Source: an uncultured delta proteobacterium
GTDB lineage: Bacteria; Myxococcota_A; Polyangia; Haliangiales; Haliangiaceae
Direction: 5' to 3'
Assembly (NCBI GenBank): GCA_963743525.1
Contig: CAVUQH010000024.1
Coordinates: 65,763-129,762 of the forward strand
Length of the DNA: 64,000 nt
Made by a program: the position numbers and the translations under genes. The notes below the pieces were generated by a model. That model had not been told where the DNA came from. It made no database searches and worked only from the letters and a program-made list of their open reading frames with translations. This document shows, one piece after another, positions 51 to 43,604 of the stretch. Positions within the stretch are counted from its first letter, which is position 1, and each line of letters opens with the position of its first letter.

Positions 51-1326
51 TCAGCGCGCGAGGGCGTCGAGCCCGGCGCGGGCGCTGGCGCGTACGTCGG
101 AGCGGTCGTCGTCGACGGCGGCGCGGAAGTGCGCCTCTGCGTGGTCGCTGTCGCCGGCGCGGAGCTCGATCCAGCCGAGCATGACCGAGACTTCGCCGGC
201 GCGATCCGAGAACGGATGGCGGGACAGGAAGTCGCGCATGGCGGCGGCGGCGCGGCGGGTCTGGCCAGCGCGGGCACGGGCGACGGCGAGCCAGTAGCGG
301 GCATCCTCGGCCAGTGGCGCGTCGGGATCGATGCGCGCGGCGCGGGCGAACGCGTCGGCCGCGGTGCGGAACTGCTTGTCGCGCAGCGACGTCCAGCCGT
401 CGTGGAACGCCTGCTCCATCGGGCTGGCGGAGGGCGAGAGCGCGGCGGCGGGCGGCTCGGCCTGGGTGAGCGCGGGCGCGTGAGCGGTCGCGCGAGCGGT
501 CGCGTGAGCGGTCGCGTGAGTGGTCGCGTGAGCGGTCGCGTGAGCGGGCGCGTGAGCGGGCGCGGGTTCGGGCGCGGGTTCGGGCGCGGGCGCGGGTTCG
601 GGCGCGGGCGCGGGTCCGGGCGCGGGCGCGGGCTCGGGCGCGGGCGCGGGCGCGGGTTCGGGCGCGGGCGCGGGCGCGGGTTCGTGGCGCGGGCGCGGGT
701 TCGTGCGCGGGCGCGGGTTCGGCCGCGCGCGCGGGCGCCTCCAGGTCGAGGTCCCGCACCACCACCTCCTGCTCCTCGCGCGGCCACGTCTCGCCGGCGC
801 CGAGCAGGATCGTCTGCTGTCCGTGCACGTGGACCTCGGCGATGCCGCTGTGCACGGTCACGCCGACCAGCTCGTCGCCTTCGACCTTGACGTCGAAGGC
901 GCTGCCGCGCGATTCGATCTCGGCGTCGCCGGTGACCACGCGGAAGCGGTCGCGGCGCGCGACGTCGGCGACGGCCACGCTCACGCGACCGGAGCGCAGG
1001 CGCACGACCTCGTCGGTGGCGCCGTCGGGGGTCGGCTTGGCCGTGTGCACGAACTGGGCGCCGTCGGGCGCCTGCACGGTGCCGTGATGCGCAAGCTCGG
1101 GTGCGCGGGTGTCGGCCGGGCTGCGCAGCCCCACCCACAGCGCCACGGACGCCGCGGCGACCAGGGCAACGGCGGCGGGCGCCAGCCAGCGGCGCCGCGG
1201 CGACGGCGTCGGCGCGGTGGCCTCGGCTTCGGCGAGCAAGCTGCTGCGAATGGCCTCCGCACGCGCCTGCTCGAGCGGCGGATACGGCAGCTCGCGGGCG
1301 AGCGCGGCCAGCTCTTCGGCGGTCAT
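51..1326 (-). CDS. ECF anti-sigma factor (cytoplasmic N-terminus, one TM helix, FecR-like periplasmic domain, low-complexity linker, C-terminal TPR-like domain). The reading frame changes inside a GC-rich repeat array, so a frameshift, pseudogene or sequence error is possible.
   Basis: ATG at 1326 overlaps the sigma stop (ATGA). My translation reads MTAEELAALARELPYPPLEQARAEAIRSSLLAEAEATAPTPSPRRRWLAPAAVALVAAASVALWVGL (TM helix), then RLRSGRVSVAVADV...FRVVTGDAEIESRGSAFDVKVEGDELVGVTVHSGIAEVHVHGQQTILL (FecR-like), then EPAPAHEPAPA. This frame stays open to position 1 but has low GC3 downstream of the repeats. The ORF-track frame 51..419 (MEQAFHDGWTSLRDKQF...TPR-like) has high GC3 and is open up to 980. 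A +/-1 shift is therefore needed somewhere in ~480-780. Confidence 0.55.
481..720. repeat. GC-rich imperfect tandem repeat (GCGGGC / GCGGGTTCGG / GCGTGAGCGGTC units) inside the anti-sigma gene; encodes EPAPA / ATAH / RTRARA depending on frame
   Basis: Direct reading: runs of gcgcgggcgcgggttcgg and gcgtgagcggtc units, ~85% GC. Unit lengths vary by 1 nt (gttcgtgcgcgg versus gttcgtggcgcgg), which moves the frame. Confidence 0.8.
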
Positions 1327-1862
1327 GATGGCCTCCCTTCGAGCCGGCTGCGCAGGCGCTTGCGCGCATCGTGCAGCCGGCGCCACATGGTTCCTTCTCG
1401 CACTCCCAGAGCCCTGGCGGCGGCGGCTCCGGGAACGCCTTCGACGTCACACATGACGAACGCGACGCGCAGATCGTGGGGCAGTCGGCGCACGGCTTCG
1501 GCCAGGCGTTCGACCAGCTGCCCTCGCGCCGCCTGCTCGTCCGGCCTGGGCGCTCGCGGTGGCGGCACCTCGGCCAGGTCGCGCATGGCGCTGGAGCGGC
1601 GGGCCTCGCCGCGCGCGTGATGGCGGGCGACGTTGGCCGCGATCCCCAGGATCCAGCTGCGCGCCGATCCGGTGCCGCGGAAGCGCGACGACGACTTCCA
1701 CACCTCGACGAACGTGATCTGCACCAGGTCGTCCAGGTCGCCGCGCACGGGAGCGAGGCGGCCGAGGAAGCGGTGCACACAGGCCGCGTGTCGATCGAAC
1801 AGCGCGCCCAGCGCGGCCGGCTCGGCCACGGCGCAGGCGGCGAGCAGCGCCTCGTCCGACAT
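1323..1862 (-). CDS. ECF-family RNA polymerase sigma-70 factor
   Basis: C-terminal 180 aa of ORF 1323..2519: MSDEALLAACAVAEPAALGALFDRHAACVHRFLGRLAPVRGDLDDLVQITFVEVWKSSSRF (region 2) ... RLPHDLRVAFVMCDVEGVPGAAAARALGVREGTMWRRLHDARKRLRS (region 4). ATG at 1860-1862. The stop is overlapped by the anti-sigma ATG. Confidence 0.9.
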   Translation of the reverse strand: MSDEALLAACAVAEPAALGALFDRHAACVHRFLGRLAPVRGDLDDLVQITFVEVWKSSSRFRGTGSARSWILGIAANVARHHARGEARRSSAMRDLAEVPPPRAPRPDEQAARGQLVERLAEAVRRLPHDLRVAFVMCDVEGVPGAAAARALGVREGTMWRRLHDARKRLRSRLEGRPS

Positions 1863-1918
1863 CTCGCGGGCGTCGCCGACGACCCGCCGCAGCGGAACGA
1901 TCTGTCCCCGGCGCTGCT

Positions 1919-3100
1919 TCACAGCCCCACCCTCACGCCGAGGCCCAGCCAGGTGTAGCGCCCCGGCTCGCCCGGCAGCATGGTCAGCGGATCGGGCGGC
2001 GGCGGGTTCTTGCTCGGGTCGGCGCGATCGGCCGCGTACGGATCGACCGCGTCGCGGTGCGCCGAGGGCATCAGCTCGATGCCGGCGGCCAGCTCGACGG
2101 CGATGTTGTCGGTCACCGGCAAGGTCAGCGACAGCGAGCCACCCACGCGCAGACCGAGGGTGTCGTTGCCCGCGTGATCGACCGTCGTGTACGGCGCCGG
2201 CGGCGGCACGCAGTTGGGACTGGTCGGATCGCAGCAGTTGGGATCGGTCGCCGGGTCGCAGCAGCCGGCGCCGTCGGGCCCGCACGGCGGCGGGTCGGTG
2301 ATGTTGTTGGGCCAGCTCTTCTCGGTGCGCATCCAGCCCAGGCCGACCGACGCGCTCGGCGCCAGCACCGCGCGACCGACCGACACCGGCCACCTGGCAG
2401 TGGCCATCAGGTCGGCACCGCGCCGGCGGATCTGCGTCATGTTGTCTTCGGGCGCCAGCCATGAATGGTCGGCGTAGCGGCCGTCGATGCCGACACAGAG
2501 CGGGCCGGCGGCGATGCACGCGTCGGCGCGCACCGAGCGTGTGCTCGAGCCGTCGTCGCCGGAGAGAAAATCGAGTCCCGCGCCGACCGACAACCAGTGG
2601 TGCACGGCCGGTGCCTGCTGCCGAGGCACGGCGTCACTCGGCGGCGACAGGGGAGCGGCGCCGGGCGCGCGGCTTTGCTCGGCCGGCATCGCGGCAACCG
2701 TGGTTGGCGGCGCCGGCTCCGGCACCGCCAGCAGCGGGGCGACGGCGTCGTCGCGCACCCACGAGTCGATCCACACGGCGGCCATCTCGGCTGTCGACAC
2801 CCGGCGGCGGGCGTCGCGGCCGTCGGCGCCGTGCACCGTGACCTCGAGCCCGCGCTCGGCAGCGCCGACGGTCACGCGGACGGCGGCGCACGAATCGGCG
2901 GCGGCACCGACGCCGCGAGCGCGCAGAGCGCGGGCCACGTCGCCGGCCTCCGGACCGCCGGAAACCGACGCCGTCGGGGCGCCGGTCTCGGGACAACGCG
3001 ACTGAGCAGGAGCGGACGCGGCGGTCCATCCGATCGCGAACACGACCGTCGCGCACGCTCCTGTCAGCCTGCCGATCAACTCAGCTGGCCTCGCAACCAA
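1919..3100 (-). CDS. Secreted protein with cysteine-rich CGPDGAGCCDPATDPNCCDPTSPNC repeats and a predicted beta-strand-rich C-terminus (possible outer-membrane beta-barrel)
   Basis: ORF track. Signal-peptide-like N-terminus MVARPAELIGRLTGACATVVFAIGWTAASAPAQ. Internal Cys/Pro/Asp repeats related to the next gene. C-terminus has an alternating hydrophobic pattern and ends ...RYTWLGLGVRVGL. Confidence 0.7.
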   Translation of the reverse strand: MVARPAELIGRLTGACATVVFAIGWTAASAPAQSRCPETGAPTASVSGGPEAGDVARALRARGVGAAADSCAAVRVTVGAAERGLEVTVHGADGRDARRRVSTAEMAAVWIDSWVRDDAVAPLLAVPEPAPPTTVAAMPAEQSRAPGAAPLSPPSDAVPRQQAPAVHHWLSVGAGLDFLSGDDGSSTRSVRADACIAAGPLCVGIDGRYADHSWLAPEDNMTQIRRRGADLMATARWPVSVGRAVLAPSASVGLGWMRTEKSWPNNITDPPPCGPDGAGCCDPATDPNCCDPTSPNCVPPPAPYTTVDHAGNDTLGLRVGGSLSLTLPVTDNIAVELAAGIELMPSAHRDAVDPYAADRADPSKNPPPPDPLTMLPGEPGRYTWLGLGVRVGL

Positions 3101-4452
3101 AGGCAGCAGGCGGCGGGTCGATCACGCAGCCATCGTCCGGCGGGGTGCCGCACGGGGCGTTGGGGTCGGCCGAGGGATCGCCACAGTCCGGAGGAGGAGG
3201 CGTGGGATCGGGCCAGCAGATCGGATCGGTGGGGTCGCACGGTGGATCGGTGGGGCCACACCCGGCGGGATCACCATTGTCGTCGCAAGGCGGCGGCGGA
3301 GGCCAGCAGAAATCCGGGTCCGCGAGGCACGGGTCACACAGAGCCGGGTCCATCAGACAGGGATCGCAGTTGGGATCCGTCGCGTCGCAGGGCGGCGGCG
3401 GCGGCACGCAGTTGGGATCCGTCGGATCGCAGCAGCCGGAGCCGTCGGGGCCACACGGAGGCGGCACGCAGTTGGGATCGGTCGGGTCGCACGGGGGCGG
3501 CGGCGGCGGCGGCACGCAGTTGGGATCCGTCGGATCGCAGCAGAGAGAACCGTCGGGCCCGCACGGGTCGATGCAGTTGGGGTCGGTCGCCGGATCGCAG
3601 GGAGGAGGCGGCGGCACGCAGTTGGGATCGGTCGCCGGGTCGCACGGCGGCGGCGGCACGCAGTTCGGATCGGTCGGATCGCAGCAGCCGGAGCCGTCGG
3701 GGCCACACGGATCGACGCAGTTGGGATCGGTCGCCGGGTCGCACGGCGGCGGCGGCGGGGACGCAGTTCGGATCGGCCGGATCGCAGCAGCCGGAGCCGT
3801 CGGGGCCGCACGGATCGACGCAGTTGGGATCGGTCGCCGGGTCGCACGGCGGCGGCGGCGGCACGCAGTTGGGATCGGTCGCCGGGTCGCACGGAGGCGG
3901 CGGCACGCAGTTGGGATCGCTCGGATCGCAGCAGCCCGAACCGTCGGGGCCACACGGCGGCGGCGGCACGCAGTTGGGATCGAAGGTCGGGTCGCAGGGA
4001 GGCGGATCGCCGCCACCACAGCCGGGATCGGTGGACCCACCACCGCTGCCCGACGAGCCGTCGTTGCCGTCGCCACCCCAGTAGACGCCGTTGCCCAGGT
4101 CCCAGGCGCCCTGGCCGGCGCACACGTCGAAGGCGACGCGCCTGGCGCCCTGGCTGTTCTTGGTCACGAACGGATGAGCGCCGTCGGCCGTGACGACCTC
4201 GAGGCGGTACCCGGTGCCCTCGGGCACCGACAGCACATAGGAACCGTCGCCGCGCAGCGGGGCCTCGGCGATCACCTGATCGCCCTGGACCACGCGCACG
4301 CCAACGGGGCGCGAGCTGAAGCTGGAGGTGGCCAGACGCCCCGACAGCGTCTGAGTGGGTGGCGGGTCGGCGCACGCAGCGCACAGGGCCGCGGTACACA
4401 GCAGCGCACGCAGCGTGCTGGATCGCATCGCGGTCTTCATCGCGGTTCTCAT
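3081..4452 (-). CDS. Secreted cysteine/proline-rich repeat protein (signal peptide, beta-sandwich-like domain, then ~11 copies of CDP(A/T)DPNCVPPPP and CGPDGSGCCDP(S/T)DPNC, then a Cys-rich C-terminus). Requires a +1 frameshift near 3757-3761, so pseudogene or homopolymer sequencing error.
   Basis: ORFs 3334..4560 and 3081..4076 overlap and carry the same repeat in different frames. The first loses sense after ...CDPADPNCVP|AAAAVRPGDRSQ, and the second gains sense at ...SPPPPPCDPATDPNC. DNA at ~3757 reads ggcggggacgcag where sister repeats read ggcggcacgcag, an extra base in a G run. Likely start is MRTAMKTAMRSSTLRALLCTAALCAACA with RBS AGGGAGAGGA and ATG at 4450-4452. Confidence 0.7.
3390..4000. 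repeat. ~42-bp tandem DNA repeats (ggcggcacgcagttgggatcggtcgccgggtcgcacggcggc and variants) encoding the CDPxDPNCVPPPP protein repeats
   Basis: Direct reading of 3400-4000. More than 10 near-identical units. Related units also occur at ~2190-2300 inside gene 1919..3100. Confidence 0.85.
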
Positions 4453-4546
4453 TGGGTCGGTCCTCTCCCTGATTGGGGGTTGAGCAGGAAAGCGCGCGCG
4501 TCTATTGATGTAGTGCCCGCTCGCACCGGACCCTTCGCGACTTTTT

Positions 4547-5322
4547 TCAGATGCCGGCAAACTCCGCGAGATGTTGGTTGAAAAGTCGGAACCGCTCCGC
4601 CTGCATCATGTGCCCGGCGCGCGGGAGTGTGACCAGGCGCGCATCCCGAAGGTGGAGCTGCAGCGAGTCGATGGTGGCGTCGAAGTAACCGATCGACTGC
4701 TCGCCGGCGACCAGCAGCACCGGCGCCGTGACCGCCCCGAGCTCGCGGTAGCGCGGCCGGTAGCGCTGCAGCGCCAGGCAGTCGGCGCGAATGGCCCGCC
4801 ACTCGCCGGCGGCGCGCACCTGAAAGCGCGGCGGCATCCGATCATAGGCCGAGCCCAGGACCAGCTGCAGGAAGAAGGCGCCCCCGGCCTCACCACCGCG
4901 AGCGGCAACCAGCGCGTCGAACAGGCAGCCAAACGCCTGCGGCATCGCCGGCACGTCGTCGGCGCACGGCATCGGCGGCTCGCACAGCACCAGGCCGCGC
5001 ACCAGCGCCGGCCGCGTGCGCGCCAGCTCGAGCGCGACCACGGCGCCGAAGCTCGAGCCGCAGACCAGCACCGGTCCGCCGCCGAGCTGCTCTTCGATCA
5101 ATGTGGCCGCGTCGGCGGCGTGGTCCTCGACCCGATAGCCGGCCGGTGCCGGGGGCGCCGCACCGCTGCCGCGGCGGTCGTAGGTGACCAGCTCGAGCGA
5201 CGCCGCCAGCGGCGACTGCATGGTCCAGGTGGTGTGGTCGGCGGCGCTGCCGTGGATGAACAGCACCGCCGGTCCGGCGCCGCTGCGCCAGACGGTCAGC
5301 GGCGGACGACTCAGAGCCAGCC
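4547..5322 (-). CDS. Alpha/beta-fold hydrolase
   Basis: C-terminal ~255 aa of ORF 4547..6088: PAVLFIHGSAADHTTW ... VLVCGSSFGAVVALELA (nucleophile-elbow GxSxG context) ... PRAGHMMQAE. No in-frame ATG near the expected N-terminus; a non-ATG start close to the epimerase stop is assumed. Confidence 0.75.
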
Positions 5323-8357: not shown

Positions 8358-8510
8358 GGCTCCCTACCTAGCGCAAAATGCCGTAATAACAAAGGAAAAT
8401 CGGGCCAATCCAGGTCCGATTCGCCGTTGCGCTTTGGCTCCCGGGAGGGTATAGAAGAGCGCTCTAAGTCGCAGGAATTCCTCAAGTTCCTGTAATCCCA
8501 GGAGACCCGG

Positions 8511-11183
<2,673 letters not shown>

Positions 11184-34438: not shown

Positions 34439-37400
34439 ATGGGGGAGCCGCCGGGCAAGGGTGGGGGTAGCGGGAAGCAGCCGACCACGACGGCGATCGA
34501 CGCCGGCAGCGCACCCACCCTCCCCGGCACCATGCCGACCGAGCCCGGCAGCGAACCCACCATCCCCGGCACCATGCCGACCGAGCCCGGCAGCGCGACC
34601 ACCATCGCCAGTGTCGAGTCCGAGCTGCAGAGCCGACCGCGCCGGCGCAGGTCGCGACCGGCAAGCAACTATCGACGCGGCGACCACATCGATCGCTTCG
34701 TCGTACTCGAGGTGCTCGGCGCCGGCGGCATGGCGGTCGTGCTCTCGGCCTACGATCCGAGCCTGGATCGCCGCGTCGCGATCAAGCTCATGCGCTCCGA
34801 GCTGTGGCGCGCTGCCGGCGTGCGCGGACGTGATCGACTGTTGCGCGAAGCACAGGCGATGGCACGGCTGTCCCATCCGAACGTGGTCACCGTGCACGAG
34901 GTCGGCGCGATCGGCGACGAGGTGTTCATCGCGATGGAGCACGTCGGCGACCGGACGCTGCGCGACCGCATCCGCGAGCTTCGCAGCGCATCACCGTTTT
35001 CCTGGCGGGCCATCGTCGAGCCGTTCTTGCAGGCCGGCCGCGGCCTCGCCGCCGCGCATGACGCCGGCCTGGTGCATCGCGACTTCAAGGCCGAGAACGT
35101 GTTGGTGGGCGACGATGGCCGCGTTCGGGTAACCGACTTCGGTCTCGTGAGCACCGCAGGCGCCGCCGACTCGTCCGGCGACGAGCTCGCCAGCCACGAC
35201 GACCTCGCCGACCTGGCCACGCCCACACCGATCCCGATGTCCGCGACGATCACGCGGACCGGCGCTCTCCTGGGAACTCCGGCGTACATGGCGCCAGAGC
35301 AGACCCGCCACGGCACCGTCAACGGCCGCACCGACCAGTTCTCCTTCTGCGTATCGCTGTGGGAGGCGCTCTACGGCGAGCGGCCGTTCGCCGGGTCGCG
35401 TGTTGGCGAGGTGCGCGAGGAGATCGCCGCCGGGCGTCTCCGCGAGCCACCGACCGAGGCGCGCAGCAAAGTACCGCCGTGGATTCACGAAGCGCTGCTG
35501 CGAGGGCTCTCGCACGATCCGGGTCAGCGCTGGCCGACGATGAACGCGCTGCTCGCGCGCCTGGCGAGCGATCCCGATGCCGCGCGCCGCCAGCGGCGGC
35601 TGGCGCTCCTCGTCGGAGCCGTAATCGTCGCGCTGGCCGCCAGCGTGGTGGTCGCCATCGCACGACGACCGGGCGTCACCGCGCCGGTGTGTGGTGGCGC
35701 GAACGAGGAGATTGCCGCGGTCTGGAACGACACGATCAGGCATCAGATCGGCGAACGATTCGAACGAACGGGTCGCTCCTATGCCGCGGCTACGTTCGAC
35801 CGTGCCGCCCGGCGACTCGACGCATACGCAGATGACTGGGTACGAATGCGCACCGAGGCGTGCAAGGCAACCAACGTGCATCACCGGCAATCGGAGACCG
35901 TGCTCGATCTTCGCATGCGTTGCCTGGATCGCCGTCGGGCGGCACTGGCCGCTACCACCGAGTTGTGGGCGAGCGACGCTTCCGGCCAGACCGTCGATCG
36001 GGCCCTCGATTCACTCGCAGCGCTGCCCGCGCTCGACCGCTGCGCCGATCTGGACGCCTTGACCGCCGCAGTGCCGCCGCCAGAGTCGCCGAAGGCGCAG
36101 CGAACCGCCGAGGATCTGGCGAAGCAGCTCGATCACCTCGATGCCCTCGCCGGTGCGGGTCGGTTCGCCGACGCCTTGCCGGCGGCCAGGGACGTGTCGG
36201 CGCGCGCTCGTCGGCTCGGCTACGCCCCGGTGCTGGCGCGCGCGCTTTACGTCGCGGGCACGCTCGAACACGAGCTCGGTGACGACAAAGCGGCCGAGAC
36301 GACGTTGCGCGAGGCAATCGAGGTCGCGGCGGAGGCACGCGACGACGATCGCGCGGCGCACGCGTGGATCGCGCTCGGGTCGGCGCTGTCCGGTCAAGGG
36401 CGAGACGAAGATGCGCTCGCGCAGCGCACCGGAATGCAGGCGTTCGTGACGCGCGCCGGTGGCAACGAGCTGCTCCGTGCGGCGATGTGGAGCCAGCTCG
36501 GGACCACGGCGTGGAACCTCGGCCGCTACCGCGAGGCCCAGGCTCTCCACGAGCGCGCGCTCTCCGCGCGCGAGAAGTCGCTCGGCGCGAACGCCCCGGA
36601 GGTGGCCGAGTCCCTCGAGGCGCTCGGCAACGTGTTCGCCGACGAGGGTCGCTACGACGACGCGCGCACGCGACTCGAACGCGCGGTGGCGATCCGCGAG
36701 CAAGCGCTGGGCCCGCGCCACCCGAGAACCGCGAGTGCGCGCAACGACCTCGGCATGCTGCTTCGCGACCTCGGCAAGCCCCGCGAGGCCCTGGCGAACT
36801 TCCAGCTCGCGCTCGCGGTGTACGAAGAGATGCTCGGCACCGAGCACGCCGACGTCGGTCGGATCCTGAACAACATCGGCCTGGCCTATTCGGACATGAA
36901 CGACAATGCCGCCGCCGAGCCGGTGTTCCGGCGAGCCCTCGCGATCAAGGAGAAGGCCCTCGGCCCGACCCATCCGAGCACCGCCCTCACGCTCGGCAAC
37001 CTCGGCGCGGTCCTCGTCGAGAGCGGCAAGGCGGCCGAGGCGCTTCCGCTGCTCGAACGGGTCCTCGAGATCCAGCGCACGTCTCTCGCACCGGATCACC
37101 CGAACCTGGCCCTGGCCCACCACACGCTCGGTGCAGCGCTGCGGCTCGATGGCAAATGCCAGCAGGCGATCCCGCACTTCCTCACCGCGAAGAAGATCTG
37201 GGAGACCAAGCTCGGCAAGGATCATCTCCAGACCTCCAGCGCATACTTCGACCTCGGCGTCTGCGATACGGATCTCGGTCACCCGCTGAAGGCGCTGCCA
37301 CTGCTCGAGCGAGCACTCGCCATTCGTGACAAGGCCGGTCGCGCCGGAGCTGCGGCCGAAGCCCGGTGGCAGATCGGACGCGCGCTGTGGGAGTCGGGCA

Positions 37401-37528
37401 AGGATCGCGCACGCGGGCTCGGCCTCGTCCGCGAGGCGCGCATCAAGCTCGCCGGGCTCCGTCAAGCCCGTGAGATCGATGCCTGGCTCGCCGCGCACGA
37501 GCTGCTGGCTCGCAGCATGGCGCGGTGA
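34439..37528 (+). CDS. Ser/Thr protein kinase with Pro/Thr-rich N-terminal extension, one TM segment and extensive C-terminal TPR repeats
   Basis: LGAGGMAVVLSAYD...AIKLM...HRDFKAENVLV...DFGL...GTPAYMAPEQ; TM LALLVGAVIVALAASVVVAIA; many TPR-like units. 1029 aa. Confidence 0.9.
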   Translation: MGEPPGKGGGSGKQPTTTAIDAGSAPTLPGTMPTEPGSEPTIPGTMPTEPGSATTIASVESELQSRPRRRRSRPASNYRRGDHIDRFVVLEVLGAGGMAVVLSAYDPSLDRRVAIKLMRSELWRAAGVRGRDRLLREAQAMARLSHPNVVTVHEVGAIGDEVFIAMEHVGDRTLRDRIRELRSASPFSWRAIVEPFLQAGRGLAAAHDAGLVHRDFKAENVLVGDDGRVRVTDFGLVSTAGAADSSGDELASHDDLADLATPTPIPMSATITRTGALLGTPAYMAPEQTRHGTVNGRTDQFSFCVSLWEALYGERPFAGSRVGEVREEIAAGRLREPPTEARSKVPPWIHEALLRGLSHDPGQRWPTMNALLARLASDPDAARRQRRLALLVGAVIVALAASVVVAIARRPGVTAPVCGGANEEIAAVWNDTIRHQIGERFERTGRSYAAATFDRAARRLDAYADDWVRMRTEACKATNVHHRQSETVLDLRMRCLDRRRAALAATTELWASDASGQTVDRALDSLAALPALDRCADLDALTAAVPPPESPKAQRTAEDLAKQLDHLDALAGAGRFADALPAARDVSARARRLGYAPVLARALYVAGTLEHELGDDKAAETTLREAIEVAAEARDDDRAAHAWIALGSALSGQGRDEDALAQRTGMQAFVTRAGGNELLRAAMWSQLGTTAWNLGRYREAQALHERALSAREKSLGANAPEVAESLEALGNVFADEGRYDDARTRLERAVAIREQALGPRHPRTASARNDLGMLLRDLGKPREALANFQLALAVYEEMLGTEHADVGRILNNIGLAYSDMNDNAAAEPVFRRALAIKEKALGPTHPSTALTLGNLGAVLVESGKAAEALPLLERVLEIQRTSLAPDHPNLALAHHTLGAALRLDGKCQQAIPHFLTAKKIWETKLGKDHLQTSSAYFDLGVCDTDLGHPLKALPLLERALAIRDKAGRAGAAAEARWQIGRALWESGKDRARGLGLVREARIKLAGLRQAREIDAWLAAHELLARSMAR

Positions 37529-37595
37529 CCGCTACGCATCGATTGTCAGCGCCGGAGAGCCATGTGCCGTGGGCTCCCGGTGTACTTTCGGATCC

Positions 37596-38478
37596 GTGGG
37601 ACTCGTCGCAACTGCCGTTCGACTCGCCTCGCTGACCGCCGCGCTGCTGGTCGGCTGCGGTCCGTCGGCGGTCATGGGCGATGGCACCGGAGGCGGCGCC
37701 GACGCCAACCAGGGCAGCCCCGATGCCCGACCGGGCGGACCCGACGGGACGCCGGATGCGTTCACCATCTACGCCCACAGCGACCACGTCCTCTACCGCG
37801 TCGATCTGGTCAACAAGACCCTGCAGACCGTCGGGCCGTTCGACGCGCCGCAGGTCCCCGTCGGCAACAGCACCGCCGAGGACGTGATCACCGACCTCGC
37901 GGTCGGCCCCGACAACACCATCTGGGTCATCTCGGAGACCTCGCTGTACACCGCCGACCCCAACGACGGGCACGTCACCAGCGTCGGCTCGCTGTCCGAA
38001 TGCGGCACCAAGACCGTCGCGCTCACCGCGACCCCCGACGGCGAGATCTACGCCGGCGACTACAACGGTGCGATCTGCAAGATCGACATCACCCGGTCGC
38101 CGCCCGTCGTCGAGGCGCCGGTGACGATGAGCGGCAACCTGGCCCTGTCAGGTGACATGGTCGCGGTCGGCGACGGCACCGTCTACGGCACCGCCTATGC
38201 TGCTCGGGACCTCGGGCCAGCCCGATCTCCTGGTCACCATCGACCTGGCCACCGGCGCGACCCAGCAGGTCGGCTCGAGCGGCTTCCCCAAGCTGTTCGG
38301 CGCCTCGTTCGGTCTGGGCAAGGTCTTCGCCTTCACCCACGACGGCACCGGCGACGTGGTGACCATCGACCGCACCAGCGGCATCGGCACCCGGTACGCG
38401 ACGTTCACCGATCCCAGTACCGGCAACGGCATCCGCTTCGCCGGCGCAGGCGTGAACGCGACCATCGTCGTGAACTGA
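37596..38478 (+). CDS. Lipoprotein with beta-propeller-like repeats; needs a +1 frameshift near ~38205, so pseudogene or sequence error
   Basis: GTG start reads (M)GLVATAVRLASLTAALLVGCGPS (lipobox LVGC). The frame runs to ...AVGDGTVYGTAYA then becomes nonsense. ORF 38152..38478 continues sensibly: MLLGTSGQPDLLVTIDLATGATQQVGSSGF...NATIVVN*. Confidence 0.55.
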
Positions 38479-38535
38479 CCCGGCGAGCATGCAGACGAAC
38501 TACCTCTGCCGATTGCCGGGGCGCTCGTACCGAGA

Positions 38536-39180
38536 CTAGCTCTGGTCGGCGGTCAGGGACTGCAGCGCCGCGACGTAGGCCGCGGTGTCGAACGGGCGCT
38601 CGGTGGCCACGGCCGCGCCCATTTCCCGCATCAGCACCACGGCGATCCAGTGGATGGCCTGGCCGCGGCTGACGCCCTCGGCCATGAGCCGGTCGGCGGT
38701 CTGGCCGGCTTCGGGTGGGTCGCCCTCGCGGATCTGCAGCTCCACCGCCTCGTACATGGAGGCGTACATCCGCTCGACGTGGGGCGGCACCGCCTGGTCG
38801 GCGGCCAGCATGCTCTCGGCGTCGGTTGTGATCTCCACCGCCGACACCGCGGCGTCGCACAGCTCGGAGGCGCGCTGATCGAAGCCGACGTCGATCGCGG
38901 GGCCGTCGCCGATCAGCGCGCGCAGCTGCGCGGCGTGGGTGGCGTCCTCCAGATTCAGTCGGTCGGGCGGGTGGCCGCGGCGGGCGACTGCGGCCAGGTA
39001 CATCCGCCCGAGCTCGCCGACACCGTCGGCCGCGGCGGCGGTCCCGACCTCGGCGAGCCACTCGTCGCGGCGGCGCACCCAGGCCAGGGCCAGGCGACCA
39101 CCGCCGGGCAGGGGGCGGACGATGCCGATCCAGGTCTCGCGGGGTTGCTCCGGGTCGAGGGTCATGGGGTCGCCGCCCAA
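38536..39180 (-). CDS. Hypothetical cytoplasmic protein
   Basis: ORF track, 214 aa, no recognisable motif; codon usage looks coding. Confidence 0.5.
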   Translation of the reverse strand: MGGDPMTLDPEQPRETWIGIVRPLPGGGRLALAWVRRRDEWLAEVGTAAAADGVGELGRMYLAAVARRGHPPDRLNLEDATHAAQLRALIGDGPAIDVGFDQRASELCDAAVSAVEITTDAESMLAADQAVPPHVERMYASMYEAVELQIREGDPPEAGQTADRLMAEGVSRGQAIHWIAVVLMREMGAAVATERPFDTAAYVAALQSLTADQS

Positions 39181-42467: not shown

Positions 42468-42519
42468 AGCGCGGACGAGAGCCGGCGTCGGTCGTAGAGG
42501 TCGGGCCGGACGACCAATG

Positions 42520-43263
42520 CTAGGGACAAACGTTGCACCCGGCGATGGAACTGTCACATCCAGTGGCCACGTCGCAGCCGCTGGGGCAGGTGACGAAGCC
42601 GGGCGGGTTGGGACAGCTCGCGGCCGGATCGCAGGTGACGTCGCACGCGCACGCGCTGCCGCAGTTGACGCCGCCGGAGCACGAGTTGCTGCCGGTGCAG
42701 GTGATCGAGCAGTCGGTGGTGCAGCTGGTGGTGAACATGCACGACGTGTCTCCCGAGCAGGTGACCTGACAGCTGGGAGCCGAGTTGCATGTCAAGCCAC
42801 CACACGACATGTAGCCACCACAGGTGACCGAGCACGGGCCGGCGTTGCACTCGACGCCGAAGAAGCAGCTTCGGTCGCCCAGGCACTGGACGTCGCACGA
42901 CGAAGCGCCGGAGCAGTCGACGTTGCTGGGGCAATCATCGGCGTTGAGGCATTCGACGCGGCAAGGGATGCTGTTGGGGCAGCGGATGACGCCCGCCTGA
43001 TTGGAGCCGATGATCGTGCACACCCCGCCCGGGCAACCGCCGTTGCACTCCGGCGGGCACGGACCGGCGTCAGACGGATCAGCGTCGACGGGGCTTCCGC
43101 CGTCGCCACCAGCGCCGCCGTCGCCTCCGGTCACAGCCCGCGCGTCGATGGTGCCGTTGCCGCCGCCGTCGTCGCGGCCACCGGAGGTCGGGTCGTAGCC
43201 GAACCGGCCACAGGCGGCCAGCGTCAGGCAGGCGATGGCGAGGACTGGGAGCCGAACGATCAC
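42520..43263 (-). CDS. Cysteine-rich lipoprotein (many CxxxC/CxC motifs)
   Basis: GTG start overlaps the upstream TGA (GTGA): (M)IVRLPVLAIACLTLAACG, then CPPECNGGCPGGVCTIIG...CSVTCGGYMSCGGLTCNSAPSCQVTCSGDTSC... Confidence 0.65.
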   Translation of the reverse strand: MIVRLPVLAIACLTLAACGRFGYDPTSGGRDDGGGNGTIDARAVTGGDGGAGGDGGSPVDADPSDAGPCPPECNGGCPGGVCTIIGSNQAGVIRCPNSIPCRVECLNADDCPSNVDCSGASSCDVQCLGDRSCFFGVECNAGPCSVTCGGYMSCGGLTCNSAPSCQVTCSGDTSCMFTTSCTTDCSITCTGSNSCSGGVNCGSACACDVTCDPAASCPNPPGFVTCPSGCDVATGCDSSIAGCNVCP

Positions 43264-43604
43264 GGTTGCTTCACGCGAATCGGGATGCGGAAGGTCAGCG
43301 GCGAGGCCTGGTGGCCAAACGTGGTACCGCGGGCGACTGCGAGCAGGCATTCGCCCAGCTGCTGGTGCTCGGCATCGGCGGGCACCAGCTCGGCGGCGGT
43401 CACGGCGCCGCCGGCATCGACGTGGAAGCGGATGGCCAGCTCTTTGGCGGCAGCGGCGGCCGCGGGGTAGCGGTCGAAGCAGCGGGTGACCAGCGCGTGG
43501 CGGCTGCGGAAACGCGCCGTGAGGCTCTCGGCGGTGGTCGTCTTGTGCGGCGTGGTCGCCGGCGGCGACGGCGATGCGGGCGCGGGGTCAGGCGACTCGT
43601 TCAA
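43260..43604 (-). CDS. Small Pro/Ser/Thr-rich protein with TonB-C-terminal-like segment
   Basis: TTG start overlaps the kinase stop (TTGA). ...AAKELAIRFHVDAGGAVTAAELVPADAEHQQLGECLLAVARGTTF resembles the TonB_C fold pattern. Confidence 0.4.
   Translation of the reverse strand: MNESPDPAPASPSPPATTPHKTTTAESLTARFRSRHALVTRCFDRYPAAAAAAKELAIRFHVDAGGAVTAAELVPADAEHQQLGECLLAVARGTTFGHQASPLTFRIPIRVKQP

Follow-up and report, generated by a model that had tools for sequence, protein, structure and literature searches.

A frameshift in a Cys/Asp/Pro repeat lipoprotein gene on a Haliangiaceae metagenome contig is most likely not biological

In the 64-kb stretch of metagenomic DNA analysed here (referred to, at its full length, as the window), the gene for a Cys/Asp/Pro-rich repeat lipoprotein is interrupted by a net +1 change of reading frame at 3757–3760. 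The extra base is probably a consensus indel error of a long-read (itself probably Nanopore-type) metagenome assembly, and the frameshift, taken as a feature of the genome, is most likely not biological. The surrounding tandem repeat is GC-rich and highly self-similar, and an error of consensus calling or polishing there would have added the base; the actual organism would then carry one intact gene of approximately 456 codons. The parts of the locus are the following:

3081..4452, minus strand: the whole disrupted gene, with the ATG at 4452 and the stop codon at 3081–3083; 456 aa after removal of one base
4462..4469, minus strand: Shine-Dalgarno-like GGGAGAGG, 9 bases 5' of the ATG at 4452
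3760..4452, minus strand: upstream coding part, in frame A, comprising the signal peptide, β-sandwich, Gly-rich linker and DPNC units one to five
3081..3758, minus strand: downstream coding part, in frame B, comprising eight DPNC units, the conserved C-terminal Cys-rich module ...PPAAFGCEAS and the stop codon
3334..3756, minus strand: out-of-frame continuation of frame A, ~141 Arg/Ala-rich codons with a stop at 3334–3336, whose translation would require the extra base to be real
3365..4005, no strand assigned: DNA tandem-repeat array encoding the DPNC units, as delimited by repeat analysis
3757..3760, no strand assigned: frameshift site (net +1), a G4 run on the plus strand and C4 on the coding strand, in the context GTC-CCC-G

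One repeat gene in two reading frames

Two open reading frames overlap at the locus on the minus strand, 3334..4560 (408 codons) and 3081..4076 (331 codons), with coordinates exactly as in the original prediction, which had taken them to be the same gene in two frames. The phases of the repeat motif, a switch in GC3 and the single-ORF orthologues (see below) all bear this out. The AACTGC motif, encoding Asn-Cys, has phase 0 in its first five copies (3975, 3912, 3870, 3825, 3768) and phase 1 in all eight that follow (3722 to 3371), and the codon position richest in GC shifts at ~3750, from coordinate mod 3 = 1 to mod 3 = 0. When one C is deleted, the repaired translation reads through 456 codons uninterrupted.

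The switch falls within the linker AACTGC-GTCCCCGCCGCCGCCGCCG-TGCGAC, in which the C4 run corresponds to the plus-strand G4 at 3757–3760. As had been predicted, the repeat unit concerned is otherwise conserved: all 12 of the other units are in frame, with GTG followed by in-frame CCN codons in nine of them (eight GTG-CCG and one GTG-CCT) and GAT/GAC codons after AACTGC in the remaining three. In the comparison of the units, the window reads GTC-CCC-G where its sister units read GTG-CCG. While the predicted gain of one G in the G4 run is correct as to the net +1 at this position, it is not correct as to a simple added G: compared with the sister units and with the orthologue on contig L005 (described below), a G on the coding strand is replaced by CC (C by GG on the plus strand). 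Read from the letters, this would be either a substitution combined with a one-base insertion or a GTC codon plus expansion of C3 to C4. Fifteen other G4, C4 or C5 runs are present within the repeat gene, all of them in frame. The frameshift site is located inside the most self-similar stretch of the array (3616–3878, period 103, 93% matches), where mis-placed reads and GC-rich low complexity would make consensus calling hardest.

We give next to no probability to the two ORFs being separate, independently translated genes. While both are long, long overlapping ORFs are expected at a GC content of 70% (69.7% G+C for the window). Furthermore, the coding signal of frame B appears only past ~3758, a point at which a start codon, a ribosome-binding site and a signal peptide are all lacking, and the repeat motif runs seamlessly over the junction. 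The nine homologues that we read are single proteins with the FGCE tail, and eight of the nine also have the N-terminal domain. The original prediction had likewise regarded two separately translated products as unlikely, and both the seamless repeat phase and the single-ORF homologues effectively exclude them.

The reading frame in relatives and selection acting on it

The original prediction had pointed to orthologues as the place to look for an intact frame, and it is indeed found there, with both complete orthologues being single ORFs. The first, on contig L001 (CAVZFC010000035.1 of the MAG MFD05684.bin.1.145, syntenic with the window at ~89% DNA identity), runs from MTTAMKTAM to FGCEAG in one ORF. 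The second, on L005 (ENA MEGAHIT contig ERZ27249683 k141_837900, 92.8% identity to the window), is called as a 380-aa gene running from MRTAMKTAM to FGCEAS, and the whole gene cluster is present on this contig. The start Met is common to the window gene and its orthologues (MRTAMKTAM / MTTAMKTAM). At the position homologous to the shift, L005 has CCAACTGCGT-GCCGCCGCCG (GTG-CCG) and L001 has TGC-CCG, with no run in either. A metagenome scan additionally yielded two gene halves on L002 and L003 (JGI Ga0114931), each open to the contig end, which indicates that the Ga0114931 assembly broke inside the array and that, consequently, the shift site is not covered by these two contigs. The Logan contigs L004 and L006 end where the array begins. 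Elsewhere on L005, at 8457..9470, an NAD-dependent epimerase is called in two pieces (59 + 270 aa); it is a 337-aa gene in L004 and L006.

The site at ~3760 is the sole indel within the gene, relative to both L001 and L005, whose length is not a multiple of 3. All the other indels, including ones of 81, 42 and 108 nt, are multiples of 3, which indicates selection for the reading frame throughout the array. For the 102 C-terminal codons past the repeats, dN/dS is 0.045 in comparison with L005, 0.050 with L003 and 0.11 with L001, at dS values of 0.17–0.48. The GC3 of frame B is 0.80–0.87 across the repeat array and flattens only over the Pro-rich C-terminal tail. Downstream of the shift, frame B contains no stop codon and retains the FGCEAS tail, with no sign of pseudogene decay. 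An old pseudogene was also considered, and is ruled out by the dN/dS of 0.045–0.11 downstream of the shift. Given purifying selection of this strength, the extra base, if real at all, must be very recent.

We consider it unlikely that a genuine frameshift of very recent date, be it a strain-level polymorphism or a nascent pseudogene, accounts for the extra base; such a mutation would truncate the lipoprotein after five repeat units and add ~141 out-of-frame residues. The base does stand in the deposited sequence, a 4-base run is an atypical error hotspot, and repeat arrays are mutation-prone, this one differing in unit number between close relatives (13, 12 and 8 units). However, the relatives are all intact, and the two further frameshifted genes in the 64 kb (see below) would need independent recent +1 mutations of their own. 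Moreover, the frame downstream of the shift is unrelaxed, as judged by the dN/dS values, the lack of stop codons and the conserved tail, so that a genuine event would need extreme recency. Were the base real, it would mean only the very recent loss of one uncharacterised member of a lipoprotein family.

As the alternative to a sequencing or assembly error, the original prediction had offered a slipped-strand, phase-variable site, at which the length of the G run would switch a surface lipoprotein on and off. Like the contingency genes of Neisseria and Haemophilus, the window gene has a homopolymer in its coding sequence and encodes a probable surface lipoprotein with variable repeats. The tract, however, is located mid-gene, is not conserved in relatives and, at 4 bases, is too short: contingency tracts typically comprise 7 bases or more. 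No run is present at this position in L005 (GTG-CCG) or L001 (TGC-CCG), all fifteen of the other runs in the gene are in frame, and the adjoining CCG trinucleotide repeats change length in threes only. A contingency site is, accordingly, very unlikely here, and this part of the prediction is not supported.

Even a real base could in principle be bypassed during translation. Ribosomes stall on polyproline, and tRNA-Pro is prone to +1 slippage when it reads CCC-N codons (EF-P / m1G37). At GUC-CCC-G, the P-site tRNA-Pro would slip from CCC to CCG within a ribosome-stalling polyproline stretch, so that a full-length product would be made despite the shift. The sequence V-PPPPP-C is recovered exactly when one base is passed over at CCC-G, and the likeness to prfB-type +1 frameshifting is that a +1 shift, here on a CCC proline codon, would bring back the complete protein. 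Unlike in the prfB type, however, the shift in the window is not conserved, both complete orthologues being plain single ORFs, and there is neither an adjacent 0-frame stop or hungry codon nor a GGAGG-like Shine-Dalgarno stimulator upstream of the site: in the context GAUCCGAACUGC (GUC CCC GCC GCC), the next 0-frame codon is the common GCC rather than a stop or a rare codon. The eight GTG-CCG sister linkers and the single GTG-CCT one, moreover, work unshifted. Programmed frameshifting at this site is, in our estimate, extremely improbable, and we regard as highly improbable the broader proposition that a real base is tolerated, be it via a +1 slip on CCC at a polyproline stall or, in a weaker form, through genuine on/off switching of the gene in the population. 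If it were true, slippage would make the production of the full-length lipoprotein tunable, from an unconserved, newly arisen and recoding-dependent allele of a myxobacterial surface-repeat gene.

Further frameshifts and the origin of the extra base

We screened the whole 64-kb window for frameshifts with a GC3 frame HMM followed by stop-codon checks. The HMM detected two other same-strand frame changes without a stop codon and, across the window, no further clear frameshift case. The genes concerned are listed here together with the neighbouring gene that is discussed below for its L001 copy:

51..~1320, minus strand: FecR/TPR anti-sigma factor gene, with a net +1 at a junction at ~684–687, inside an EPAPAP-coding tandem repeat
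~37590..38478, plus strand: DUF6923 (PF21959) lipoprotein gene, with a +1 (or −2) at a junction at ~38200–38212
1919..3100, minus strand: gene for a 393-aa protein, directly downstream of the repeat lipoprotein gene

The anti-sigma junction lies inside the GAACCCGCGCCCGCGCC (EPAPAP) repeat, where the window has gcgccacgaa and the preceding unit has gcgcacgaa. In L001 (8846..10207) and L003 (1677..3665) the gene is a single ORF, which runs from MTAEELA via DRFRVVTGDAEIESR to MEQAFHDGW...GLDALAR and the stop codon. The DUF6923 gene is distributed over two ORFs, 37326..38672 and 38152..38478. Once these are merged, the 293-aa product aligns with its ~290-aa homologues at 98% coverage (70% identity to homologue P0241, E = 1e-142), and the alignment crosses the junction without interruption. 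There is no homopolymer at this junction, where the window reads GAC-C-TCG-GGC-CAG and the homologue D-G-S-G-Q. Net +1 frameshifts thus affect 3 of the ~50 genes across the 64 kb, all of them intact elsewhere.

As to the behaviour of the HMM itself, it labelled the repeat gene as non-coding because of its unusual composition, and in-frame stops within the other HMM segments resemble ordinary gene boundaries. It also mis-assigned 42480–43237, which is in fact an ordinary minus-strand gene for a Cys-rich lipoprotein. This gene (42520..43350, minus strand) encodes 276 aa with many CxxxC-like units (..SCDVQCLGDRSCFFGVECNAGPCSVTCGG..) and has an atypical distribution of GC over the codon positions.

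The long-read origin of the window, and the reading of its three defects as errors rather than mutations, are inferences. The window encodes a hydrolase identical to P0238, a protein on record from an NCBI/ENA contig of 422,503 bp. A long-read origin is suggested by the length of this contig, to which the window belongs, and by its passage through an array where four contigs of three other assemblies come to an end (L002/L003, L004 and L006), these assemblies being taken here as short-read. The L001 dataset belongs to the Microflora Danica long-read collection, which was produced from Nanopore data only, with Flye as the assembler and a single round of Medaka for polishing (PMC12313526). In L001, the copy of the 393-aa gene carries two +1 indels, at ~7691 and ~7954, while the gene is intact in the window, L003 and L005. 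One of these indels, from GTG-CCGAC to GTGTTCGAC, is also a replacement of one base by two identical bases. That a Nanopore-only assembly shows +1 indels of a like kind in the neighbouring gene argues for an error in the window as well.

Consensus indels in Nanopore assemblies are documented to lead to frameshifted gene calls, especially below ~40x coverage, while R10.4-type data usually resolve 4-base runs (PMC9262707). The window resembles such cases, known from IDEEL-test frameshifts, in that an indel within a homopolymer or low-complexity, GC-rich repeat splits a gene into overlapping ORFs, relatives are intact and several events occur per contig. It differs from them in that the classical Nanopore error is a deletion in a long homopolymer, whereas here the run has 4 bases, which is short for an error of that type, and the change is an insertion plus a substitution (G to CC relative to sister units and orthologues, rather than a clean one-base expansion), with the sequencing technology itself being a deduction of ours. 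In principle, three frameshifted genes in 64 kb could also be real pseudogenes of an environmental population. Nonetheless, a consensus error is favoured because two more genes in the window are broken in the same way and relatives are intact, and because strong purifying selection persists downstream of the shift; of the alternatives in the original prediction, a sequencing or assembly error thus has the better support.

If the extra base is an artefact, the consequence is one of annotation hygiene, with roughly one frameshift error per 20 kb of this contig. The split ORFs of the repeat gene, the FecR/TPR anti-sigma gene and the DUF6923 lipoprotein gene should then be merged or flagged, and should not be taken as evidence of pseudogenes, of phase variation or of novel small proteins.

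The repeat lipoprotein, its family and its neighbours

A lipoprotein-type signal peptide, MRTAMKTAMRSSTLRALLCTAALCAAC, ending in ..LCAAC, opens frame A. In the repaired 456-aa protein it is followed by a domain of ~100 residues with a transthyretin-like β-sandwich, 13 DPNC Cys/Asp/Pro units and the FGCEAS tail, and the intact product is most likely a secreted or outer-surface lipoprotein. By composition, the window protein is ~12% Cys, 25% Pro and 14% Asp.

A homologue search with the repaired protein returned 147 proteins of 280–415 aa (best E = 5e-54), nearly all of them without a name ('hypothetical proteins') and derived from MAGs of Kofleriaceae/Polyangiales or from soil metagenomes. The nine sequences that we read share the same N-terminal domain, repeats and FGCE tail, and eight of them are complete in one ORF, the ninth (P0003) being truncated at its N-terminus. 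The N-terminal domain of the family has the motif ..TGRV..VRAV..DG.F...P.G..YRLEV.. and is followed by a Gly linker; next come CDPxDPxC units, variable in number, with polyproline between them. The tail, CWPxPxPPxCD...FGCE, is conserved, with invariant C, W and C columns and nearly invariant F and G. Every element of this architecture is found in the repaired window protein. Among the listed family members P0001–P0120, there are 8–13 or more CDPxDPNC/polyproline units per protein.

When searched against the Pfam-A and NCBIfam profiles, the repaired protein gave zero matches at E ≤ 1. Its units presumably resemble thrombospondin type 3 repeats (PF02412) and the Myxococcus cysteine-rich repeat (TIGR02232), a likeness that we take as a lead only: short, Asp-rich, Cys-bounded units of the form ...D-x-N-C(-P), present in many copies in a secreted protein of a myxobacterium-like organism. 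Compared with these two families, the window units are shorter and consist of CDPxDPNC plus a polyproline spacer, alternating with CGPDGSGCCDPxDPNC, and the repaired protein has no significant match to either profile.

AlphaFold2 models residues 33–123 as a β-sandwich with pLDDT above 90. It predicts no regular fold and almost no secondary structure for the repeat/C-terminal half (pTM 0.26). A Foldseek search with the N-terminal domain returned only DUF3823, the teneurin carboxypeptidase-like domain and HIU hydrolase / transthyretin-like sandwiches, the best match having E = 5.5e-5 and TM values being ~0.25–0.3, low because of the disordered tails. These are generic transthyretin/carboxypeptidase-regulatory-like sandwiches and allow no functional inference.

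The repeat lipoprotein gene stands at the head of a minus-strand cluster (1323..4452 and 51..1320), in which it is followed by the gene for the 393-aa protein, an ECF sigma factor gene and the FecR/TPR anti-sigma factor gene, an order that is kept in L001, L003 and L005. The sigma factor has Sigma70_r2 and r4_2 domains, and the anti-sigma factor a FecR domain with a TPR tail. The conserved order suggests a putative cell-surface signalling module. While the 393-aa protein matches no family in Pfam-A and NCBIfam at E ≤ 1, it contains one copy of the Cys motif of the repeat lipoprotein (PPPCGPDGAGCCDPATDPNCCDPTSPNCVPPP), and its C-terminus, ...YTWLGLGVRVGL, is β-strand-like. The repeat lipoprotein and the 393-aa protein may cooperate, the latter perhaps being an outer-membrane partner of the former. 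Regardless of the frameshift, the repeat-lipoprotein family has no annotation yet and could merit a profile model of its own.
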